From an uncultured Acidimicrobiia bacterium (lineage in GTDB: Bacteria > Actinomycetota > Acidimicrobiia > Spongiisociales > JAENVV01), in assembly GCA_963752075.1 (NCBI GenBank), contig CAVVWO010000007.1, positions 14,840 through 78,839 of the forward strand: a DNA stretch of 64,000 nt. The letters are read 5' to 3'. A program made the position numbers and the translations under genes. Below are positions 12,918 through 31,268 of the stretch, piece after piece. The notes beneath the pieces were generated by a model. It saw nothing but the letters and a program-made list of their open reading frames with translations, made no database searches and was not told where the DNA came from. The first letter of the stretch is position 1, and each line of letters opens with the position of its first letter.

Positions 12918-14252
12918 GTGGTGCACGCAGGGGTCCGGACACCACCGCACAGCGCCGAGGCCGAAGAGTCGGTTTTGGGAGCCATCCTCCTCTCGCCTGA
13001 CACGGCCAACCTCGTGCTCGACAAGCTCGATGCCGAGGATTTCTATATCCCGGCGTATCAAGCGGTCTTCGAATCGATCCAGGAGCTCTACAACGGCAGC
13101 CAACCGATCGACGCGGTCACGGTCACCGATCAGCTCCGTCGAAAAGGCGAGTTGGACCGGGTCGGAGGGATCGGCTTCGTCACGGAGCTCATCGACGCGG
13201 TCCCTGTTGCGAGTCGCGTCGAGTATTACGCCAGCATCGTCGAAGAAACCGCTCTCAGGCGCCGCCTCATGGCTGCGGGCACGAGAGTCTCAGACCTGGC
13301 GATGGACGTGGAAGAGGAGATCGATACCGTCATCGACAAGTCGGAGCAGACCGTCTTTCGGGTCGCCGAGCGCCGGGTCGGTGATGGGCTTCAGCTTCTC
13401 AGCACCCACCTCCAGGCCTCCATCGAACTGATCGAAGAGCTCGGTTCGTCCGCCACCCACATCACCGGGACGCCGACCGGCTTTCGCGACCTCGACAAGA
13501 AACTGGCAGGCCTCCACGCTGCCAACCTGATTGTCATCGCCGCTCGGCCCGCCATGGGAAAATCGGCGCTCGGACTGAACATCGCCGCCAACGTCGCACT
13601 GCAGGGCGGGACCGTGGCCGTGTTCTCGATGGAGATGGCCAAAGAGGAGATCATCCAACGGCTCCTGTGCTCGATCGGTCGAGTCGACTCGATGAAGCTC
13701 CGGTCCGGCCAACTCGATCAGCGCCAATGGCAAGGCGTGGTCAACGCGGCGGGGAAACTCTTTGGAGCGGAGGTCTATGTCGACGACTCGGCGAACGTCA
13801 CGGTGACCGATATCCGGGCCAAATGTCGACGTCTGAAACGCTCGAAAGGACTCGACCTCGTCCTGGTGGACTACCTCCAGCTCATGACCGGTCGGAACCG
13901 TGAGAATCGTCAGCAGGAGATCTCCGAGATCAGCCGGAGCATGAAGAACCTGGCCAGGGAGTTGGATATCCCGGTCATCGCCATCTCGCAGTTGAACCGC
14001 AGCCTGGAAAGCAGGGATGACAAACGGCCGCGTCTCGGTGACCTGCGCGAATCGGGCGCAATCGAACAGGACTCGGACATCGTGATGTTCATCTACCGGC
14101 ATGAGTACTACCACCCGGACGACATCGACTCGAAGGGTTTGGCAGAGGTCATCGTGGCCAAGCACCGGGCCGGCTCGACCGGCAAGGTCGAGATGACATT
14201 CCTGCCCGAGTTCACGCTCTTCAGCGACCTCGGCCGCGACGTCGCCCCATAG
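12918..14252 (+). CDS. dnaB: replicative DNA helicase
   Basis: PPHSAEAEESVLG, ARPAMGKS, VDYLQLM, SQLNR, DLRESGAIEQDSD; start uncertain (possibly 12797 with an indel). Confidence 0.95.
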   Translation: MVHAGVRTPPHSAEAEESVLGAILLSPDTANLVLDKLDAEDFYIPAYQAVFESIQELYNGSQPIDAVTVTDQLRRKGELDRVGGIGFVTELIDAVPVASRVEYYASIVEETALRRRLMAAGTRVSDLAMDVEEEIDTVIDKSEQTVFRVAERRVGDGLQLLSTHLQASIELIEELGSSATHITGTPTGFRDLDKKLAGLHAANLIVIAARPAMGKSALGLNIAANVALQGGTVAVFSMEMAKEEIIQRLLCSIGRVDSMKLRSGQLDQRQWQGVVNAAGKLFGAEVYVDDSANVTVTDIRAKCRRLKRSKGLDLVLVDYLQLMTGRNRENRQQEISEISRSMKNLARELDIPVIAISQLNRSLESRDDKRPRLGDLRESGAIEQDSDIVMFIYRHEYYHPDDIDSKGLAEVIVAKHRAGSTGKVEMTFLPEFTLFSDLGRDVAP

Positions 14253-21436: not shown

Positions 21437-21946
21437 ATGTCCGCTTCCGTGCTGGGTACCTCGCTGTTCGGCATCGTCTTCTGGTTCGGAGCCCCCCTGG
21501 TGGTTCGCGCATTCGGCCATACACCGCGGTTGTGGGCACGCCTCTGGCTGGTTGCCGCGATCGGAGCGGTGGCGGTGGCCTGGGATCTACCCAGCCCCTT
21601 CTTCACCGAACACACGGCAACCTTCTCACAGCATGCTGTCGGAGGGGGCGTTGCCTCGGTGTGTGTCGCTTACTACCTCCTCCACCATGCCGTCGAACAC
21701 ACGGTGATTCGCCGTGCCCTGGCGGTCTTGGCGGTCGTGTCGGTCCTGGGCGTGTTGAATGAGATACTCGAACTTCTCCTCGACGCGGTGCGGGGCACCC
21801 GGCTGGCCGCCGACGCTTCGTGGGATCTCCTTGCCAACACGGTGGGTGCTGTGTTGAGTTTTCTCGTGATCGAGGTCATCGGCTGGTTCGGCAGGTTTCG
21901 ATCTGGCGTGGTCCTCCCGAGCTCGGATCGACCGAATTTGGGGTGA
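21437..21946 (+). CDS. hypothetical membrane protein (5' end uncertain)
   Basis: Several TM segments; NEILE...D.SWDLLAN resembles DUF2238/VanZ-like membrane proteins. Confidence 0.55.
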   Translation: MSASVLGTSLFGIVFWFGAPLVVRAFGHTPRLWARLWLVAAIGAVAVAWDLPSPFFTEHTATFSQHAVGGGVASVCVAYYLLHHAVEHTVIRRALAVLAVVSVLGVLNEILELLLDAVRGTRLAADASWDLLANTVGAVLSFLVIEVIGWFGRFRSGVVLPSSDRPNLG

Positions 21947-21975
21947 TCGCCACACAATCATCTAGCCTGTCGTCC

Positions 21976-22872
21976 GTGGCTGCCAAAGAACTCAGCACCG
22001 ACCGCCTGCGTCTTCGAGGTTGGCGGCCATCCGACCGGCCCGTCTTCGCGACGATGAACGCCGACCCTGACACGATGCGGTACCTCCCGAGAACTCTGTC
22101 GACCGACGAATCCGATGCGTTCGCCGAGCGGATCGCCGATGACCTCGACCGAAACGGGTACGGACTGTGGGCAGTCGAGGTTCCCGACGTTGCGCCATTC
22201 ATTGGCTTCGTGGGTCTTGCGGTACCCGATTTCGACGCCCCCTTCACACCTGCGGTCGAGGTCGGTTGGCGTATCGCGGCGCACTACCAGGGAAACGGTT
22301 ACGCGCTCGAAGCCGCCCGGGCGGTGTTGGCCTACGCGTTCTCCGAGCTTGGCTTGGACCAGGTCGTCTCTTTCACGTCGGTTGCCAATGAGCCGTCATG
22401 GAGGCTCATGGAGCGTCTCGGAATGGAGGCGGACCCCGCTTCGAGTTTCGATCATCCTCGACTGTCGGCCGACAGCCCGCTTCGCCGCCATGTGCTCTAT
22501 CGAGCGGAGGCGACCAGCTGGCTACGCCGGCACCACAACCGTCGGGTTGTTCGCGCCCCATGGACCGCCAGCCAGAAGCACCCGATTGTGGTGTCCGAAG
22601 GGGATCGGGTCACCGTTGGGAGGCGCGACGACGAGTGGACCGACTATCGATGGTGTGTCGCGGAGACCGGTGAGACCAGTTGGCTACCGGTTTCGATTCT
22701 CGAAATCAGGGAAGACGGAACGGGCGTTGCGCTCCGCGACTATTCAGCGGCCGAACTGACGGTCGGCGCCGGGGATGTCGTGGAAGTCGAAGAACGCATC
22801 GCAGGTTGGAGTTGGTGTGTGACCGAATCCGGCCGCGCCGGCTGGGTGCCCGACCGGGTCTTGGGCGCATGA
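21976..22872 (+). CDS. RimJ/RimL-type GNAT acetyltransferase fused to tandem SH3-like domains
   Basis: RLRLR.W, FIGFVGL, VEVGWR, GNGYA.EAA, N.PS..LMERLGM; C-terminal ~110 aa with two SH3-like units (W.WC...G..GW.P); TAGCCT seven nt before GTG. Confidence 0.8.
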   Translation: MAAKELSTDRLRLRGWRPSDRPVFATMNADPDTMRYLPRTLSTDESDAFAERIADDLDRNGYGLWAVEVPDVAPFIGFVGLAVPDFDAPFTPAVEVGWRIAAHYQGNGYALEAARAVLAYAFSELGLDQVVSFTSVANEPSWRLMERLGMEADPASSFDHPRLSADSPLRRHVLYRAEATSWLRRHHNRRVVRAPWTASQKHPIVVSEGDRVTVGRRDDEWTDYRWCVAETGETSWLPVSILEIREDGTGVALRDYSAAELTVGAGDVVEVEERIAGWSWCVTESGRAGWVPDRVLGA

Positions 22873-23744
22873 AGGGAGACAGTCGGATGGCGGCCGCTCC
22901 ACAAGCCATCAGGGCGGCGGTGCCGCTCATCAAGCAAGCCATGGCCGGCTTCAAACGTCATCGCGTCCCTCGGATGGCCGCTGCCTTGGCGTATTACACC
23001 CTCTTCTCGCTGGCGCCGCTGCTCCTCTTGCTCTTTGCGATCGCCGGCTTCGTGGTGGGTGACGACGCCGCCCAGGACACCTTCCTCGCCCAGGTCGAGG
23101 AAGTCGCCGGAGAGGACATCGCCGCCACGCTCGACGATTTGGTGTCTGCTCGCGACGGAGGGACCGGCAACGATGTGATCGCATCCGTGTTCGGTTTGGT
23201 GCTGCTCTTCGTGGGGGCGTCTGGCGTGTTCCTCCAACTACAGGCGTCACTCAACACGGTCTGGGAGATCCCCATCGAGGAAACCACCGGCCTGGTGCCG
23301 ATGCTCTGGAAGCGGCTCCGGGGCTTTGCCGCGGTCCTCGTGCTCGGAATCGGACTCATTGTGTTCACCGTGGGAACAGGCCTCGTGGCTTACTTCGCCG
23401 ATGAAATCGCTGAACGGATGCCAACGGGAAACGCCATCATCCAAGTACTCAATCCACTGGTCGCGATTCTCGGCGTTTCGGCGCTCATGGCTCTGGTGTT
23501 TCGCTATCTGCCCGCTCGCCAGGTGAGCTGGAGGGTCGCAGGACTTGGTGGGCTTCTCACCACGGTGGTGATCATCCTCGGCTCGGCGGTGATCGGCGTT
23601 GTCTTTGCGCTCTCAGATCCCGGGGCGAGCTTCGGTCGGTTCGCCGCAATCGTGGTTCTACTCGTCTACATCTACTACCTGGCTCAGGCCTTCTTCCTGG
23701 GAGCCGAAATCACGGTGGCCATCGACAACGGTCCGGAGAATTAG
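22869..23744 (+). CDS. YihY/BrkB family membrane protein
   Basis: AAALAYYTLFSLAPLL, LQASLNTVW, FFLGAEI. Confidence 0.9.
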   Translation: MKGDSRMAAAPQAIRAAVPLIKQAMAGFKRHRVPRMAAALAYYTLFSLAPLLLLLFAIAGFVVGDDAAQDTFLAQVEEVAGEDIAATLDDLVSARDGGTGNDVIASVFGLVLLFVGASGVFLQLQASLNTVWEIPIEETTGLVPMLWKRLRGFAAVLVLGIGLIVFTVGTGLVAYFADEIAERMPTGNAIIQVLNPLVAILGVSALMALVFRYLPARQVSWRVAGLGGLLTTVVIILGSAVIGVVFALSDPGASFGRFAAIVVLLVYIYYLAQAFFLGAEITVAIDNGPEN

Positions 23745-24697
23745 ACCGAGGCGTCGGATGGCCGAGCCACGGGCCCCGTTTTGGGTGATCCGATGACCGC
23801 GTCGACGATGAGTTCGATCACTGCCTGGATCGTGTCGTCGAGCTGTTCCATGAGAATCACCGGAACCTGGCGGGTGGCGGCGACCGATCGAAGGTAGCGG
23901 TCGATCCTTCGCAGTTCGTCAAAGGAGTCCAGATATCGATCGGCGCTGCGGGTTCTGGCCTGCTCGGCTCGAGCCAGGAAGTGCGACCTGTGGGCGTCGC
24001 TGTCCTTGACTGCCAGGACTCCCTGGCAGATCACGGCGCTGTCGCTCCAACCGTCCATCTCGTCGTCGAAAAGACCGGGCACCAAATGAACTCCCTCCAC
24101 CACCAGGCCGGTGCCCTCAGAGATGGCTCGGTCGACGAGGCCTCGGATACCGCCTGCGACCATCTCGGCCTGTTGCTGAAAGCCGACAATGACCGGATCG
24201 TGATCGGACGGAACCGGGGCTCGCAACGCTTGATGGGCTTCAAACGAAGAGACGTGCAGTATCGGCACCAGCGACGGCGAAACCAGTTGTCGCATCACCT
24301 GCCTGACGGCATCGGTCGGGATCACACTGGGGATCCGGAGCCGCGCCCCGATTGCACCGGCCACGGATGATTTTCCGACCCCGGGGGCCCCTCCCAGGAG
24401 GACGATGATGGGATGCCCAAGGCGTCGACCTGCCACCCAGGCCCGGTAGCGGGTCGCTTTCCCGAGCCCGGCGTTCTGTTCGATCGCCTTCGCCGTGATC
24501 TCCAGCAGCTCCTCGACCGAGACCTCTGTCGAAGTCCGCTCGAACAGGCGCACTTCGGTTTCCTCGGCGATCGTGTAGGCGATCTCGGGTTCGATGCCGG
24601 CGACCATCATCGAGGAAGCGACGACGAATTTGGAGAAAGGCAACGGTGTCTCCTGCCGATCCAGAACCCAGATATATCGTCCGTGCGTACCTGCCAT
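23741..24697 (-). CDS. 2-phosphoglycerate kinase (archaeal type)
   Basis: N-terminal ATP-cone-like PFSK...S...AG; PIIVLLGGAPGVGKS; TDAVRQVMR; LHVSSF; VVEGVHLVPG; HRSHF..R; start could be 24745. Confidence 0.85.
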   Translation of the reverse strand: MAGTHGRYIWVLDRQETPLPFSKFVVASSMMVAGIEPEIAYTIAEETEVRLFERTSTEVSVEELLEITAKAIEQNAGLGKATRYRAWVAGRRLGHPIIVLLGGAPGVGKSSVAGAIGARLRIPSVIPTDAVRQVMRQLVSPSLVPILHVSSFEAHQALRAPVPSDHDPVIVGFQQQAEMVAGGIRGLVDRAISEGTGLVVEGVHLVPGLFDDEMDGWSDSAVICQGVLAVKDSDAHRSHFLARAEQARTRSADRYLDSFDELRRIDRYLRSVAATRQVPVILMEQLDDTIQAVIELIVDAVIGSPKTGPVARPSDASV

Positions 24698-24763
24698 GGA
24701 CTCGTCGCCCCTTCTCAAAAGCGTCCGGATCACCAGGGTGCTCATGGGTAGTATGACACTGCC

Positions 24764-25600
24764 ATGGCCTCGCTGACGATCGCCCAGCTTTCGGATATCC
24801 ATTGTGGCTCGCCGTTCTTCGATCCGAAGCTGCTCGAGGCCGCCGTCGAGGAGGTTCTCGACCTCCAGCCGGATATCGTTGTCATAGCCGGCGACCTGAC
24901 GCAAGAGGGCTACGCCGGAGAGTTCGAGACCGCCCGGGACGCGCTCCGACCGCTTCGAGAAGCCTTCACCACCGTGGTCGTGCCCGGAAATCATGACTCG
25001 AAGAACGTCGGCTATCTCCACTTCTACGACCACTTCGGCAAGGGGACGGCCGGACCGAAGGGTGATTGGTCCCTGACCATGGACCGGGCTCACTTCCCCC
25101 AGAGAGTGCGGCTCCTCGCGGTCGACAGTTCGAAACCCGACCTGGCGGAAGGCGAGATCGGCCGGGCGCGCTACGAGTGGATTCGTCAAGAGTTTGGAGA
25201 TCACGCCGACCTACGTCTCTTTGTCATGCATCACCATCTCGTTTCGGTTCCTGGCACCGGCCGGGAGCGGAACATCGTGTGGGATGCCGGCGACGTCCTG
25301 GCGCTGCTCGAGGATTCGGGTGTCGACATCGTTCTGGCCGGCCACAAGCACGTACCCCACGTGTGGCAGGTGGGTCGGATGCTGATCATCAACAGCGGGA
25401 CCGTGTCCTCGTACCGACTCCGGGGTTACACGCGCCCCTCCTACAACGTCGTGCGCATCGACGAAGAGTCGGTTGAAGTGACGTTGGTGTATCCAGGATC
25501 CGGACAACAGACCGCCGCACAGTTCGATCGAAGAACCACAGAGCTCACTCGCAATCCCGACATGGCCGGGATGTTCTCGAAGGCGGCCTGGCGATGGTGA
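24764..25600 (+). CDS. calcineurin-like metallophosphoesterase (Icc/CpdA-like)
   Basis: SDIH, AGDLT, PGNHD, MHHH, GHKH motifs complete. Confidence 0.9.
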   Translation: MASLTIAQLSDIHCGSPFFDPKLLEAAVEEVLDLQPDIVVIAGDLTQEGYAGEFETARDALRPLREAFTTVVVPGNHDSKNVGYLHFYDHFGKGTAGPKGDWSLTMDRAHFPQRVRLLAVDSSKPDLAEGEIGRARYEWIRQEFGDHADLRLFVMHHHLVSVPGTGRERNIVWDAGDVLALLEDSGVDIVLAGHKHVPHVWQVGRMLIINSGTVSSYRLRGYTRPSYNVVRIDEESVEVTLVYPGSGQQTAAQFDRRTTELTRNPDMAGMFSKAAWRW

Positions 25601-25902
25601 CCGTCCTCCGTTTGTTCCTGTCAGCCGTATCCGAAGCGGATCTGGACGAACTGATGTCCGGTTTTCGCGAGGATGTGGTTCCTGCCTTCGAAGCGGTTCC
25701 CGGGTGTCTGGGCATCGAGTTGGTGAGGGCCGATCAGGCCGGGGTGGGAGGACTGATCGAGGGGGGAGTGATCACCCGATGGGTTTCGAGTGAAGCAATG
25801 GAGGCCGGGCTCCAAGACCCCACGGTGATCGCCAGTCAGACGAGAGTGAGGGCGTTGCTGCGGCGCGAACCCTTGCGAAAGGTCTACGAGATCATCGGCT
25901 GA
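25594..25902 (+). CDS. ABM-like (antibiotic biosynthesis monooxygenase fold) protein
   Basis: 102 aa with PG.LG.EL and ITRW.S.EA..A pattern; overlaps the phosphoesterase stop. Confidence 0.6.
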   Translation: MVTVLRLFLSAVSEADLDELMSGFREDVVPAFEAVPGCLGIELVRADQAGVGGLIEGGVITRWVSSEAMEAGLQDPTVIASQTRVRALLRREPLRKVYEIIG

Positions 25903-27197
25903 GGGGGCCACGCGCCTTCAGCAACCGCAACGAGCTCCATCAGGCCCCCGCCCGGGAAGAGCACCCGGTTGTGGATAAGGCCGACGTCCATCTCTCGCCG
26001 GGTAGCCCATGGCAACACCAGGTCCACGGCGGCGGCCTTCACCTCGACCAGCATCAGATCGGCGGGTTTGGTCGAATCGAGGTCGGCAATCAGGCTCGTG
26101 CGATCCGAGAGGCTGTGCACCACCGTCACCGACCTCGCACCTGCTTGCACCAAGTCATCGGTCAGGTGGGCTCCCGCAGAGGGGGGAGCGGTGGTGGCCA
26201 CCACAACGCTTCGCCCGGACACCGACACGCTCGGCTCCAGCCGGTAGCCGCCCTCGACCACCACGATCTCCGGGTTGATGGAGCTGAGAATGGTCCGGAG
26301 ACGAGCCACGCTCTCGGGTTGACGGAGAGCCGGGTCGATGATCACCGCGGCCGCGGCGGTTCGCACCCGATACGGGCCGAGGTAGCCCCTCAGGTACTCG
26401 TGGTCGATATCCGCCGGCATGACCAGGATCTGGCTGTCCGCTCGGGCGGGTGGCACCGCGGTGCCGCTCCCCTCGAAGAGAAGAAGATCCGCCCCCAGTG
26501 TCGAAGCCACGCTGACGCCCGCCGCGAAATTGTGGCGGTCGGTTTCACCCGACAGGCCCGCTCCGCAGCGGTAGGTACCGATGGTGTCGACCCCTGCGAA
26601 GACGGCATCTTCGACATAGTCCGATGCGGCGTGAAGGCCGAGCTCCGCCATACGAGCGAGTCCGACGACCGATGCCTCGAACTCGCCGACCTCGAGAATC
26701 ACCGGGTCGGGCGGCCCGCCACGTCCCATGGTCACGATGCAGACCCGCCGTCCAGAATCTCGCCAGTGCCTAGCCAGCTCGATAGCCACCGCGGTCTTGC
26801 CTGTCCTCTTGCCGGTTCCGGTCACGGCCACCGTGGGAATGGAAGTGAGCGTTGGTTGGGTGGGAGGATCAAACCGGTAACCCGCACCCTGGTACGACAC
26901 TCCTCCCTGAAGGGAAACCGAAATCAGAGCGAAACGTCTCCGGTGGTCCAGCACGGGCTCGTCGCTGAGATCGACGACGAGATCAGGGCGGTGGGTCTCG
27001 ATGAGCTGTTCCAGCACCCTCAGCGGATCACCGGCGACCACGGGCACAGACAGAGTCGGTGGCCGATCCGTTTTCTCGCTGCCTCCGAGAAAGAGTGCCG
27101 CAACCAACGTCAGCCCGTCCGCCCGAAGCTCGCCAAGGGTCCGCTCGACGACCGGTGGGTAGTGCTGTCCGTCGATGAGCACAAGGCACCGTGGCAT
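25884..27197 (-). CDS. cpgS: cyclic 2,3-diphosphoglycerate synthetase
   Basis: LIDGQHYPPVV, FLGGSEK, DLSDEPVL, GTGKRTGKTAV, MGRGGP, HAASDY.EDA, EGSG, EVKAAAVD. Confidence 0.85.
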   Translation of the reverse strand: MPRCLVLIDGQHYPPVVERTLGELRADGLTLVAALFLGGSEKTDRPPTLSVPVVAGDPLRVLEQLIETHRPDLVVDLSDEPVLDHRRRFALISVSLQGGVSYQGAGYRFDPPTQPTLTSIPTVAVTGTGKRTGKTAVAIELARHWRDSGRRVCIVTMGRGGPPDPVILEVGEFEASVVGLARMAELGLHAASDYVEDAVFAGVDTIGTYRCGAGLSGETDRHNFAAGVSVASTLGADLLLFEGSGTAVPPARADSQILVMPADIDHEYLRGYLGPYRVRTAAAAVIIDPALRQPESVARLRTILSSINPEIVVVEGGYRLEPSVSVSGRSVVVATTAPPSAGAHLTDDLVQAGARSVTVVHSLSDRTSLIADLDSTKPADLMLVEVKAAAVDLVLPWATRREMDVGLIHNRVLFPGGGLMELVAVAEGAWPPQPMIS

Positions 27198-27275
27198 AGG
27201 GAATCGTACCCCGCCGACGCGCCGATGCGTCGGGACGGATTCCGCGATCCCCGGATCGGCGCTTAGGCTGCTGCC

Positions 27276-28206
27276 ATGGTTTCTCCCCGAATCGACGCAT
27301 TGCTCGACCGCACGGTCGTTCTCAGTTTCACGAACTTCGGCTACCAGCTGCGGAAATCGGAATGGTCCGAGATCCCTCGTATGGACGGCAAGACGGTAGT
27401 GATCACCGGGGCCACCTCGGGACTCGGACAGCGCCGCCGCCCATCGTCTCGACGCCTTGGGCGCCAACCTCGTGATCGTTGGGAGGAATGAGGCGAAACT
27501 GAACACAGTCCAGGCCGAGCTCGGGGGCCGTGTGGCCGTCGAGCAGTGCGATCTCTCGAGTTTGGCGGAGACGCGCGACCTCGCCGAACGGTTGCTTCGT
27601 CTCGACCGGATCGATGTGCTCATCAACAACGCCGGGGCAATGTTCGGGAAGCGGGAGCTGACCCCGGAAGGCTTCGAACGAACCTTTGCCACCAACCTCC
27701 TGAGCGGGTTCCTCCTCACCGAACTCCTCATACCGAAGCTCGTCGATTCTTCGCCCGCCCGGATCATCAACATGTCCTCTGGAGGCATGTACGCGCGTCG
27801 ACTCCAAGTCTCCGACCTGCAGAACGAACGTGACTACAAACCGGCGGATGCGTACGCCCACACGAAGCGAGCGCAAGTGATTCTCACCGAGGTGTGGGCG
27901 GAGCGCCTGGCTCCCCAGGGAGTCACGGTGCACGCCGTTCACCCCGGCTGGGCGGACACGGCCGGGGTACAGGACGCCATGCCGGTGTTCCGCAAGGTAA
28001 TGGGGCCGTTCCTGCGTTCGGCCGACCAGGGAGCAGACACGATGGTCTGGCTAGCCGCCGCGGACGAGCCGGCGCAAGCCTCCGGACAGTTTTGGCTAGA
28101 CCGCCGCCCGCGACCCACCCACCGGCACACGTCGACCGTCGAGTCGGAAGCCGATCGGATGAGCCTTCTATCTCAACTGCGCGACTACGCCGGCCTCAGA
28201 CCCTGA
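27276..28206 (+). CDS. SDR family oxidoreductase, DHRS12-like (apparent frameshift near 27433)
   Basis: TGATSGLG in ORF 27276..27491; NNAG, SSGGMY, YAHTK, HPGWADT in ORF 27457..28206. Confidence 0.8.
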
Positions 28207-28220
28207 GTCGAACGGTTAAC

Positions 28221-28321
28221 GGTGAAACCCCCCGGAGGAGTGGGGGGTTTCGGTGTCCTCAGGCCCTGGGGATTCGGGAAAGGGGGTACCCGTTCCGCAT
28301 AGCCTGAGAAAGTGTTGCACC
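28221..28321 (-). ncRNA. candidate small RNA with two C-rich loops (6C-like)
   Basis: Long interrupted hairpin with UACCCCCUUU loop, then a perfect 10-bp hairpin with ACUCCUCC loop; upstream TCAAG-N15-GCCGATAT. Confidence 0.5.
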
Positions 28322-28389
28322 ATAGATATCGGCTGAGCCAGACGCGAACTTGAGAGATTGTTTCGAAGCCTGGGTAGGCTCCACGACCC

Positions 28390-29289
28390 ATGAAGAAACC
28401 CTTGCTCGGCCCGGCGTTGGTCATGGCCGTCCTCGCCACATCGCTCGGTGCGATCCCCTTGCTGGTGCTGGAAATCGACTTGCCGGAACTCCAAATCGTC
28501 GCCCTTCGGGTCTGGTTGGGCGCCGCGTTGCTCTTGCTCCTCACCCGTCGAAATCCGTTCGCCCTACCGAAGGGTCTCGGGTTTCGGGTGAGCGTGGTGG
28601 GCGTCCTTCTGGCAACCCATTGGTTCACGTTCTTCTACGCGATAACTCATTCCTCTGTTGCCGTCGCTCTCTCCCTTGTCTTCCTTGCCCCGGTTCTGGC
28701 GGCGACCGCGGCATCTCGAATCTTCGGCGAGGCAGTCACTCCGGCAGTTGGCTTGGCCCTCCTCGTGTCGCTCCTGGGGTCGGTGCTCGTCGTCTGGGGT
28801 GCAGTCGCCGTGGATCCGTTGGGCCTGGTAGCCGGCGTGGTGAGTGCGGTCACCCTCGCGACGATGCTTATCGTGGGGAAGCCGATTGCGGAAGCGACCG
28901 GCGGACTGGCTACCGCCACGGCCCAGATGAGCGTGGCCGCCATCACCCTCGCTCCGTGGATGGTGGCGGCGTTCGCCCAGGTGCCGTGGGAGCCGCCCTC
29001 GTCGGCTTCCGCTCTCGAGTTCCTGGTTCCCGTGGCGATCCTTGGATTTGTTCTCACGGGGGTCGGGGCTCTCGTGAGCTGGTGGGTGATCGCCCGCATT
29101 CCGATCGCCACGGTGGGGGTGCTCTCGTACCTCGAACCTGCCTCAGCGGTCCTGTGGGCAGCTCTCGTCCTCGGACAGCGCCCCGAATTGCTCGCCTGGG
29201 TCGGAGTGGTGCTGGTGATCGGTGGCGGGATGCTGGTTGCGGTGGGCCAGGGATGGGGGGCACGGGACATTCGCGTGGCCGCGCCGTAG
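28390..29289 (+). CDS. EamA/DMT family transporter
   Basis: About 10 TM segments, two EamA repeats, LSYLEP motif. Confidence 0.88.
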   Translation: MKKPLLGPALVMAVLATSLGAIPLLVLEIDLPELQIVALRVWLGAALLLLLTRRNPFALPKGLGFRVSVVGVLLATHWFTFFYAITHSSVAVALSLVFLAPVLAATAASRIFGEAVTPAVGLALLVSLLGSVLVVWGAVAVDPLGLVAGVVSAVTLATMLIVGKPIAEATGGLATATAQMSVAAITLAPWMVAAFAQVPWEPPSSASALEFLVPVAILGFVLTGVGALVSWWVIARIPIATVGVLSYLEPASAVLWAALVLGQRPELLAWVGVVLVIGGGMLVAVGQGWGARDIRVAAP

Positions 29290-29319: not shown

Positions 29320-30504
29320 GTGGACGGTGATCAGATCATCATTGGAATCGATGACGACTCCGCACAGGCCGCGCCTCCGAGCCGTTCCGGTGGCTGGCCT
29401 CTCGTGGTGATGGGCCTGGCCGCTGCCCTGGCCATCGGTGTATTGATCGGAAACGGCCGGACCTCAGCGGAACCCACCGCCGCTGAAATCGAGCAGGTGG
29501 CCAGAGTGGAAGCCGTTCGTGATCGAGCCAATCTGGTGACCGAGTTCCCGGAAGTGAGAGAGTCCGAGCCCGCGGGGGAACCACGGCCGCTCGGACGCCC
29601 GCTCCGAGAACTCATCCCGGGCTTCTCCGACGTGCTGATCGTCAGCTTGCTCGACTCGGCCGGCGAACCCCTCTACCAACTCGTGTGGGGGCCCGGTGCC
29701 AGCAGTGCAGTCCGCGCGACAACCCTCGACCACGGCGTCTTCGACCAATCCGGCAACTTCTTTGCTCGAGTCGAACATACGTTGTGGAACGGTCAGATGC
29801 TGGCGGTGGGGGACCTGTCTTCCCGGTCGACCGGCCCCGTCGCCATCGGTGCCGATGGCTTCGTATGGCATGACTCCGAGGATGCCCGGATCGCCTACAC
29901 CGGCGAGGTCGAAGATGCCCGGCGGGCGTTGTTCACCGGAAAGCTCGAGCGCATCGTCGGTGACGGGGAGGTGGCGATTTCCTATGTGACCGATATCGGA
30001 GGCGCCCGGCTGCTCGCTTGGGACGAATGGGGGTTCGCGCTGGAGGCGGACGGAGAACTCATTCTGCTCAACCCGCCAGGGGGCGATCTCGGTCGAGGGA
30101 CACTTCGCTTTCTCGGTTCGGCGTCTCGGAGCACCGTGGCCGTCGCCGACGGCCAGACCGTGCTGGTTGGCCCACCCGACCTCCAAGACCTCGTCGAGCC
30201 CTGGTGGGCGAGCCGAATCGGGGGCGAGGTCCTGGCGGTCCACAGATCTCCTGCCAGGAGCGTCCTGGCTGTCGAAGCCATTGAGGCGGAGGGAACGGTG
30301 ACCTACGTGGTGACCGACGATGACATCGTCAGATTGGCGTTTGCGTCGGCGGATCCGCAGCGCTGGTCCTCAGACGGGCGATTCCTCATCTTCAGCTCAA
30401 CGGGCGTCGAATCCTCGGCCCTCACCTTCTACGACATCGACTCCGACACGAGCTACGTCCTGGAGATGGCCGACCAGGTCGATCGCGTGTTCGTTCGTCC
30501 CTAG
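29320..30504 (+). CDS. hypothetical membrane-anchored protein, possible beta-propeller
   Basis: N-terminal TM; WSSDGRFLIF PD40-like motif. Confidence 0.6.
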   Translation: MDGDQIIIGIDDDSAQAAPPSRSGGWPLVVMGLAAALAIGVLIGNGRTSAEPTAAEIEQVARVEAVRDRANLVTEFPEVRESEPAGEPRPLGRPLRELIPGFSDVLIVSLLDSAGEPLYQLVWGPGASSAVRATTLDHGVFDQSGNFFARVEHTLWNGQMLAVGDLSSRSTGPVAIGADGFVWHDSEDARIAYTGEVEDARRALFTGKLERIVGDGEVAISYVTDIGGARLLAWDEWGFALEADGELILLNPPGGDLGRGTLRFLGSASRSTVAVADGQTVLVGPPDLQDLVEPWWASRIGGEVLAVHRSPARSVLAVEAIEAEGTVTYVVTDDDIVRLAFASADPQRWSSDGRFLIFSSTGVESSALTFYDIDSDTSYVLEMADQVDRVFVRP

Positions 30505-31268
30505 GCGCCCGGTCGGCAGACCCGACACGCCCGAAACCCGGCCTCGAGTGCTTCGCCCATGGTGCGGAACCATTGCTGGTGGCGGTCAGTGATCCGGCGG
30601 GCATGAGAGCACGTCGGGTGGCACACGATGTGGGTGGTCTCGCTGCCGAGCAACAATCGCCCGACCGTTGCGTTGGCCTCGGCGTCGGCAGTGTCGATGC
30701 CTTCGGCCTCCAAGAGGGCTCTCTTGGCGTCCACACCAAAGAGGTAGTTGCCGAGATGGCCGTCACCCTTGATCACCCGGTGGCAGGGGATGAGCACCGG
30801 AATGGGGTTCCGAGCCATGGTCGTTCCAACCGCCCTGGATGCGCCAGGGTTGTGAGCTTCGCGCGCTACCCATCCGTACGGCCGTACCTGACCGGGCGGG
30901 ATCTTGGCGACCACCTCGAGCACGGTCTTCTGGAAAGGGCTCACCGAGCGTAGGTCGACTGGCAATGCACCCAGCTTCCCCGTGGTGAGTGCCTGATCGA
31001 GCTTGGAGGCAAGCGACGGCGGCATGGCAGAGACGGGATACGCCGACCGCCCAAACCGTCTCGCGATGTTCTCGACGAAGCCCTGGCGATCGCCGGAAAG
31101 CGCGGTGGCGGAAACACCATGCGTGTTGAAGGCAACCTGGAGCGTTCCCGCAGGGGTGGTGCGTTCAACGATTCCGTCTGCCAGCCCAGTGGACAGCAGA
31201 ACGGTCGGGGCGACCGTCGGCGGCGCCGTGCGGTTCAGTGCTGCGAGTCGGTCGGCGATATCAGACAT
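30501..31268 (-). CDS. methylated-DNA--protein-cysteine methyltransferase with C-terminal Ada Zn-binding domain
   Basis: IPPGQVR.YG, SRAVG, NP..VLIPCHRV active site; C-terminal CHPTC...AGFRACRVCRP. Confidence 0.9.
   Translation of the reverse strand: MSDIADRLAALNRTAPPTVAPTVLLSTGLADGIVERTTPAGTLQVAFNTHGVSATALSGDRQGFVENIARRFGRSAYPVSAMPPSLASKLDQALTTGKLGALPVDLRSVSPFQKTVLEVVAKIPPGQVRPYGWVAREAHNPGASRAVGTTMARNPIPVLIPCHRVIKGDGHLGNYLFGVDAKRALLEAEGIDTADAEANATVGRLLLGSETTHIVCHPTCSHARRITDRHQQWFRTMGEALEAGFRACRVCRPGA

Follow-up and report, generated by a model that had tools for sequence, protein, structure and literature searches.

How would a cell that accumulates cyclic 2,3-diphosphoglycerate (cDPG) gain access to it again? 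The question is raised by a four-gene locus in a stretch of 64,000 nucleotides, here called the window, from a metagenome-assembled genome of the Acidimicrobiia (Actinomycetota; 2.0 Mb, 54% complete). The locus encodes homologues of 2-phosphoglycerate kinase (2PGK) and cDPG synthetase (cDPGS), which together make cDPG, as well as a metallophosphoesterase (MPE) and a small ABM-fold protein. A cell storing cDPG needs a hydrolase, because the compound is otherwise a dead end and the synthetase of Methanothermobacter thermautotrophicus is described as irreversible (in passages of PMC1224877). The same passages report a cDPG hydrolase activity in Methanothermobacter, which is membrane-bound and inhibited by K+ and inorganic phosphate (Pi). 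The activity of M. thermautotrophicus is attributed to Sastry et al. 1992 in PMC10690619. The literature searched, with partial coverage, assigns no gene to this enzyme, as the initial annotation of the locus had stated, and contains nothing that links 2PGK with a metallophosphoesterase. The evidence set out below indicates that the MPE is very probably linked in function to the cDPG pathway. It is the only conserved candidate for the hydrolase, and the probability that it serves as the pathway's ring-opening enzyme is put at about 0.5.

The principal evidence is co-occurrence. Genomes were sampled evenly, not proportionally, at the level of order, class and phylum, so that the counts are not estimates of prevalence; some of the genomes are unpublished, and the overlaps of cDPGS and MPE for the class, the phylum and the Halobacteriota (see below) were read by eye from lists. 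(i) In the order sample of 41 genomes (cDPGS at E ≤ 1e-30, MPE and 2PGK at E ≤ 1e-10), all three genes are found in the same 18 genomes and none in the other 23. A single hit of 27% identity (E 2.2e-5, genome G038) was not counted. (ii) The class sample consists of 301 Acidimicrobiia genomes at least 80% complete, with thresholds of E ≤ 1e-30 for cDPGS and E ≤ 1e-20 for the MPE clade. Here cDPGS is present in 16 genomes and the MPE in 17; every cDPGS-positive genome has the MPE, and 284 of the 285 cDPGS-negative genomes lack it. The exception, G230, carries a more distant copy (52% identity). (iii) Across the phylum (281 genomes), cDPGS occurs in 166 and the MPE in 164, with both in 163 and neither in 114. 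Only three genomes have cDPGS alone (G650, G813, G884) and one the MPE alone (G742). Presence and absence are concordant inside single families (f1, f26, f59) and between the families of one order. Absence of enrichment beside cpgS and 2PGK had been named beforehand as an outcome that would refute the proposed make-and-break module; the orthologues are in fact enriched, at 18/18 against 0/23 genomes in the order, 16/16 in the class and 163/166 in the phylum. The association extends beyond adjacency. In nine of the 16 class genomes the two genes lie on separate contigs (G045, G050, G070, G073, G126, G221, G253, G271, G287), so the MPE is retained with cDPGS even where unlinked. Among cDPGS loci with no MPE within 10 kb, five of five genomes tested carry an MPE elsewhere, at 54–58% identity.

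Physical linkage provides the second line of evidence. A scan of species-representative genomes yielded at least 573 loci encoding relatives of cDPGS, and the best 80 were fetched with their flanks. A 2PGK homologue adjoins cDPGS in 72 of these 80, and an MPE homologue lies within the fetched flanks in 24. Two arrangements are seen. In the B-type (17 of 80 loci), the order MPE>cDPGS>2PGK is read from one strand, with estimated median gaps of 31.5 nt and 0 nt, and looks like an operon. In the A-type (seven of 80 loci and the window), an MPE-ABM pair lies between or beside cDPGS and 2PGK. The usual site of the A-type pair, in several classes, is between plsC-gpsA and cofC/fbiD; only in the lineage of the window and its near relatives has the pair moved next to cDPGS and 2PGK. 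The four-gene layout of the window recurs in loci L013–L016 and takes variant forms in L018, L019 and L033, and is therefore not a chance arrangement. A cDPG locus that encloses the MPE and ABM genes, as first annotated, is thus present in the window, but as a lineage-specific rearrangement, the ancestral MPE-ABM site being beside plsC-gpsA and cofC. A maximum-likelihood tree was built from 63 MPE sequences: 41 MPE hits from the loci, the window protein, P0245 and every sixth of 120 listed proteins (20). It separates an archaeal from a bacterial clade with support of 100/100. The B-type group has 17 rows, comprising 15 loci in which the MPE is directly upstream of cDPGS and two proteins of unplaced context. 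The second bacterial group, the A-type, includes an ABM-linked subclade of 21 rows (support 99/94), to which the window protein belongs. As the A-type and B-type are separate clades, each found beside cDPGS, the MPE became physically linked to cDPGS separately, at least twice.

Several further features of these loci were recorded. The majority of the remaining cDPGS>2PGK pairs are flanked by hom-thrC-thrB on one side and rho-rpmE-prfA on the other, an ordinary actinobacterial synteny. Genes were clustered by conservation in L013–L103 and in window positions 13001–38000 (L001–L012 were left out). One cluster, c18, located immediately upstream of cDPGS at 15 loci, at first resembled an archaeal-type phosphoglycerate mutase and was considered as a cofactor-independent enzyme supplying 2-phosphoglycerate. 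The cluster also satisfies the model TIGR02535 ('proposed homoserine kinase') and takes the position of thrB within hom-thrC-thrB; it was set aside as background synteny. In L093–L100, L102, L103 and L105–L107, from several classes, MPE>ABM is followed directly on the same strand by cofC/fbiD, the F420 guanylyltransferase gene (TIGR03552, 131 bits; cut-off 105). The gene gpsA beside fbiD is a known actinobacterial neighbourhood. MPE-ABM is accordingly read as a probable insertion into the gpsA-fbiD block, and a connection with F420 was set aside, although co-transcription with an F420 gene may occur. Near eight B-type loci (L040, L066, L068, L073, L076, L077, L080, L086; clusters c25 and c26) are genes for a glycoside hydrolase of GDE_N_bis or mannosylglycerate-hydrolase-like (MGH1) type and for a CvpA-trypsin protease, which hints at a glycerate-solute neighbourhood. 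In two predicted proteins, P0404 (470 aa) and P0388 (497 aa), an MPE runs on in frame into the first 170 residues of cDPGS; these could be gene fusions or artefacts of assembly or gene calling. About 25 other proteins, together with P0379, P0381, P0382 and P0384, are 490–560 aa long and contain two tandem MPE domains of the clade, 30–37% identical to the window MPE.

Co-occurrence and linkage fit any substrate of the pathway equally. The MPE may thus belong to the pathway and act on 2,3-diphosphoglycerate (2,3-DPG) or another acyclic intermediate, the ring being opened by cDPGS in reverse or by another enzyme. A bisphosphate phosphatase of this kind would return carbon to glycolysis or hold 2,3-DPG low. 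The cDPGS of Methanothermus fervidus is indeed reported to be reversible in passages of PMC1224877, and haloarchaea offer a second argument of the same tendency. The MPE clade was sought in three haloarchaeal cDPGS-2PGK loci and found in none. In all three, a PHP-family phosphoesterase immediately follows 2PGK (L069:5023–5799, L072:12439–13233, L075:12239–13012), a possible non-orthologous replacement of the MPE. This protein is most like 3′,5′-nucleoside bisphosphate phosphatases (E 1.7e-23) and also resembles RNase RNM and a cyclic-phosphate diphosphodiesterase, in each case far below the cut-off. A stand-in of this type supports the view that a partner phosphoesterase is required alongside the synthesis genes, and 2,3-DPG stays a possible substrate of that partner. 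Against such a role, a 2,3-DPG phosphatase combined with 2PGK would form a plain ATP-wasting loop, and the solved structures closest to the MPE belong to diesterases, whose substrates are doubly substituted phosphates like those of cDPG. Action on an acyclic intermediate is on balance judged unlikely. A PHP copy, 29% identical, also lies nearby in one Acidimicrobiia locus (L015:8221–9042).

The window MPE belongs to the calcineurin-like superfamily. It matches Pfam Metallophos at E 9.8e-20 (72.2 bits, cut-off 21.5), and the DxH, GD, GNH[DE], H and GHxH motifs of the alpha/beta sandwich fold are all present. Eight residues, D11, H13, D44, N76, H77, H157, H194 and H196, do not vary across 37 sequences (alignment A2, of 37 proteins hand-picked from 240 listed, plus P0002 and P0245). 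Further invariant residues, among them R167, E168, D121, S122, D126, Y137, W201 and N228, are specific to the clade, in which R134 and K80 are invariant as well. The clade is a compact one, with 154 representatives among 1.84 billion at E ≤ 1e-30. A-type proteins are distinguished from B-type and archaeal members by an insert of some 20 residues and by a C-terminal tail that is conserved among them. In the AlphaFold model (predicted local distance difference test score, pLDDT, 91.9), the closest solved folds are GpdQ and Rv0805, with template modelling (TM) scores of about 0.70 and 18–20% identity; purple acid phosphatases also match. PMC10690619 and PMC12136491 describe the cDPG ring as one in which a phosphoanhydride joins the 2-phosphate to the 3-phosphate. 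Because of this bond, each phosphorus of cDPG is in a P1,P2-disubstituted pyrophosphate. Superfamily members such as LpxH/LpxG and the ADP-ribose and CDP-alcohol hydrolases cut P1,P2-disubstituted pyrophosphates. By this analogy, with pyrophosphatases rather than with phosphodiesterases, action of the MPE on cDPG would be chemically reasonable. The earlier description of a complete metallophosphoesterase is borne out by the intact metal site. The comparison then drawn with ring opening by Icc/CpdA is a loose one, the bond being an anhydride and the protein scoring 31.7 bits against a cut-off of 225 in the CpdA model PRK11148. The SpdA model gives a similar negative (33.8 bits, cut-off 400).

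Relatives of the MPE in archaea provide a view of the wider family. The archaeal sister clade (44% identity) is found in 59 of 301 genomes of Halobacteriota, the phylum of haloarchaea and Methanosarcinales. Only five of the 301 encode cDPGS, and four of those five have the MPE. In seven of 19 sampled loci the archaeal gene is embedded in a pstS-MPE-pstC-pstA-pstB-phoU operon. These seven (L104:3082–3834, L109–L112, L119 and L122) are of Methanoliparia, ANME and Methanosarcinales type, sometimes with a PHO4/PiT transporter near. The wider family is a phosphate-starvation-linked phosphoesterase, a setting that fits a phosphate-mobilizing role, and the bacterial clades would have specialized in substrate. 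A second alternative is that the MPE is a general phosphate-starvation or cyclic-nucleotide phosphodiesterase, similar to GpdQ or Rv0805, which would accompany cDPGS through common descent and a common niche and not through a common pathway. The best sequence matches (E 5.9e-9 and 3.6e-6: GpdQ; Rv0805/CpdA class III) and the best folds are of this kind, relatives are annotated as CpdA or Icc, and the archaeal proteins in pst operons occur without cDPGS or 2PGK. A scavenging enzyme is not expected, however, to be missing from 114 of the 115 cDPGS-negative genomes in the phylum sample and from nearly all of those in the class. Nor would it stay with cDPGS when unlinked, or become linked to cDPGS twice, and the MPE scores far below the cut-offs of the CpdA and SpdA models. 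A general diesterase is thus quite improbable.

The identity of the product depends on the synthesis genes. The cDPGS of the window matches the M. fervidus enzyme (PDB 8oru/8ork) at E 6.8e-74 over almost the full length: query residues 4–406 align with chain residues 6–424 of 8oru, the unique N-terminal domain included. In the local Pfam copy a weak DUF1611 match was the only one obtained. PMC10690619 lists E45, K46, K145, R146, K149, T150, D208, E404 and K406 of the M. fervidus enzyme as residues for 2,3-DPG, Mg and ATP. Their equivalents through the 8oru alignment, E41, K42, K130, R131, K134, T135, D193, E385 and K387, are invariant in 14 bacterial sequences (alignment A1, 14 of 120 listed homologues), and the Walker A P-loop is kept. 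Conservation of all mappable substrate and catalytic residues points to the same reaction as in archaea, and the window enzyme would convert 2,3-DPG and ATP to cDPG. The 2PGK product matches PRK04220 over model positions 10–293 of 306 (E 3.5e-81) but reaches 272.9 bits, below the curated equivalog cut-off of 343; it is inferred to make 2,3-DPG from 2-phosphoglycerate and ATP. Of the two enzymes, for which a check by hidden Markov model had been proposed, cDPGS has an almost full-length match to a solved structure and 2PGK a sub-threshold match to the family model. Homologues of cDPGS are very common outside the archaea, as the loci and the phylum sample counted above illustrate, and occur in whole families (19/19, 21/21, 15/15) and in complete 3-Mb genomes. 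Many such bacterial proteins are already annotated as cDPG synthetase in databases, where the presence of the synthesis genes is visible. The cDPG passages of a paper on ammonia-oxidizing archaea (PMC7554672) do not concern bacteria. A third alternative, that the MPE (here with the ABM protein) takes a biosynthetic or modifying step towards an end product other than cDPG, such as a linear glycerate pyrophosphate made by a P–O–C cut, or that bacterial cDPGS and 2PGK make a different compound, would account for an MPE kept almost as faithfully as 2PGK and placed first in the B-type operon like an obligatory member, and for an ABM fold shared with the phospho-sugar isomerase LsrG, and has a precedent in the phosphatases that finish several compatible-solute pathways, for example that of mannosylglycerate (passages of PMC1224877), but it is highly improbable given the conserved cDPGS residues and the haloarchaea and three actinobacterial genomes that have synthesis genes without the MPE. 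To our knowledge, no product of the linear glycerate pyrophosphate type has been described.

Several observations weigh against the MPE as the cDPG hydrolase. The abstract of PMC10690619 calls cDPG exclusive to hyperthermophilic methanogens. Related genomes are not independent, and the counts given here are of genomes, not of independent gains and losses on a species tree. Synthesis genes occur without the MPE in three of 166 cDPGS-positive actinobacterial genomes and in the three of three haloarchaea. Conversely, 55 MPE-positive Halobacteriota genomes have no cDPGS, and none of ten tested genomes of this kind has a match to the 2PGK family; since the archaeal sisters occur without either synthesis gene, the wider MPE family is not intrinsically a cDPG enzyme. 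The nearest characterized relatives are phosphodiesterases of low identity, and the target bond is an anhydride. The hydrolase described so far is membrane-bound, while the translation of the MPE, on inspection, has no obvious hydrophobic segment and the protein models as globular. Finally, a B-type hydrolase co-transcribed with the synthesis genes would create a futile cycle unless regulated. The proposal that the phosphoesterase is a candidate cDPG hydrolase, made when the locus was first annotated, is thus a well-founded hypothesis, given the co-occurrence and linkage and the conserved cDPGS residues, and the literature searched assigns no gene to the activity; substrate and direction of reaction are proposed from association. 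The additional suggestion that cDPG might be a small cyclic signal is unsupported.

With the MPE taken as cDPG hydrolase, the following mechanism is proposed. The locus would represent the form that a three-gene cDPG module (2PGK, cDPGS, MPE) takes in one lineage, the module being common across Actinomycetota other than the best-known orders. (i) 2PGK would phosphorylate 2-phosphoglycerate to 2,3-DPG. (ii) cDPGS, with ATP, would close the two phosphates of 2,3-DPG into the cyclic pyrophosphate cDPG, for a total cost of two ATP. (iii) The MPE would open the P–O–P bond to return 2,3-DPG, and would perhaps proceed to phosphoglycerate and Pi. (iv) An otherwise dead-end, phosphate-rich compound could in this way be mobilized as a reserve of phosphorus, carbon or energy. 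In the subclade of the window the MPE would have a promoter of its own and be made along with the ABM protein, which is translationally coupled to it. With the genes for making and degrading cDPG linked or in one transcript, regulation would have to fall on the enzyme itself, as in the hydrolase of Methanothermobacter, which is inhibited by Pi and K+. For other reserves, among them polyphosphate, cyanophycin and glycogen, genes of synthesis and breakdown often sit together. Passages of PMC1224877 discuss cDPG as a store of carbon and phosphate. The broadest form of the proposal, in which cDPG is a widespread actinobacterial reserve of phosphate and energy, the MPE clade supplies the missing gene for its hydrolysis and the ABM protein acts as a new accessory, is tentative and somewhat doubtful as a whole.

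The match of the ABM protein to Pfam ABM lies at the cut-off (8.3e-5, 23.1 bits) and its nearest Atlas clusters are ABM (score 0.95). The fold first assigned to it is confirmed by a confident model (pLDDT 96), which has a ferredoxin-like beta-alpha-beta topology and TM scores of 0.72–0.81 to Rv0793, IsdG and SnoaB, with LsrG also among the best folds. The MPE stop codon overlaps the ABM start codon (ATGGTGA), so that the two are translationally coupled. Of the 21 rows in the ABM-linked clade, 20 have ABM as the next gene after the MPE, and the ABM protein is thus a conserved partner of A-type MPEs. Its role could be that of an accessory protein, a ligand binder or an isomerase. The predicted complex of MPE and ABM scored 0.19 (mark 0.32), which is evidence neither for nor against binding. 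Expression of the pair probably starts in the spacer that separates the MPE from 2PGK. This spacer contains a TAGTAT box that ends 11 nt ahead of the MPE start codon, and the window, L013, L014 and L016 share the motif GGTAGTATGACAC / GGCTAGTATGACA(C/T). The box suggests an MPE-ABM promoter giving a leaderless or near-leaderless transcript. A scan for sigma-70 consensus promoters and terminators yielded none above shuffled sequences, and an Rfam scan of 22500–28500 gave no match at E ≤ 1. The 9-mer CTGCCATGG occurs at 24690–24698 (the 2PGK start, opposite strand), at 24759–24767 (the MPE start) and at 27271–27279 (the SDR start; see below).

The features of the locus are collected in table 1. 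The four open reading frames (ORFs) lie where the initial annotation had placed them, and the divergent kinase and phosphoesterase genes, said to be less than 70 bp apart, are separated by the spacer listed. MPE-ABM sits on the plus strand between minus-strand 2PGK and cDPGS, and the convergent ABM and cDPGS genes overlap by 19 nt.

Table 1. Coordinates of the cDPG locus and of neighbouring genes in the window.
Feature	Position	Strand	Description
2PGK homologue	23741–24697	−	318 aa; P-loop GGAPGVGKS; NCBIfam PRK04220
Divergent spacer 2PGK/MPE	24698–24763		66 bp; TAGTAT box
MPE, A-type	24764–25600	+	278 aa; Pfam Metallophos; complete dinuclear-metal site
ABM-fold (ferredoxin-like) small protein	25594–25902	+	102 aa; Pfam ABM
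cDPGS	25884–27197	−	437 aa; match to M. fervidus cDPGS
GNAT acetyltransferase	21820–22872	+	SH3 domain at C-terminus
SDR gene adjoining cDPGS	27276–28206	+	Frameshifted
394-aa protein	29320–30504	+	No Pfam or NCBIfam match
Ada/MGMT-like protein	30501–31268	−	Unusual domain order

The module is flanked by genes for a BrkB/YihY membrane protein, the GNAT-SH3 protein, a short-chain dehydrogenase/reductase (SDR), an EamA transporter and the 394-aa protein. All five are conserved beside the locus only in the same-genus contig L013 and are not counted as part of the module; the SDR, EamA and 394-aa genes had been considered as members and were rejected on this ground. The N-terminal frame of the SDR, with the GKTVVITGATSGLG Rossmann motif, begins at 27276 and breaks near 27430, and the remainder runs in the frame of ORF 27403–28206; the same-genus orthologue in L013 is a single intact ORF. 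The frameshift is either a pseudogene mutation or an assembly error. In the Ada/MGMT-like protein, the methyltransferase DNA-binding domain (residues 111–191) precedes the Ada zinc-binding domain (201–253).

What is new here is a phylum-wide three-gene module and a gene candidate for the orphan cDPG hydrolase. In several actinobacterial lineages of moderate habitats the genes for synthesis are common, their catalytic residues intact, and a compact MPE clade is inherited with them almost without exception, so that an orphan activity gains a concrete candidate. If the proposal is true, cDPG is not limited to methanogens of hot springs, and the question becomes whether a cyclic pyrophosphate solute serves mesophilic bacteria as a phosphate store, an energy store or an osmolyte. 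The matter has a practical side: cDPG is of interest as an extremolyte that has uses in industry, and a hydrolase would lower its yield in production strains.

Several known systems bear comparison with the module. In the cDPG pathway of M. fervidus (8ork, 8oru) the same two enzymes are involved, with P-loop and 2,3-DPG-binding residues conserved. The actinobacterial hosts, in contrast, come from sediments, soils and groundwater, a third conserved gene is added, and the product is predicted only. The cDPG hydrolase described for M. thermautotrophicus carries out the reaction proposed for the MPE, cDPG to 2,3-DPG, with the same logic of mobilizing a store, and its inhibition by Pi fits the Pho-operon setting of the archaeal MPE relatives. 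The two differ in that the archaeal enzyme is membrane-bound and has no assigned gene, whereas the window MPE looks soluble. GpdQ of Enterobacter aerogenes (PDB 2dxl/2zo9/3d03) and Rv0805/CpdA have the dinuclear fold and metal ligands in common with the MPE, which is set apart from them by its 18–20% identity, clade-specific residues, A-type insert and tail, and a proposed bond that is an anhydride, not a diester. Pyrophosphatases of the LpxH/LpxG type cut a P–O–P bond between two esters, the bond type of cDPG; the MPE is not a member of LpxG as modelled in NCBIfam (E 2.6e-7, 30.3 bits, cut-off 350). In Escherichia coli, ppk-ppx pairs a polyphosphate synthase with a hydrolase. There, as proposed here, genes for making and degrading a reserve are co-located or co-transcribed and control falls on enzyme activity. 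The chemistry and the protein families differ, and the likeness is one of analogy.

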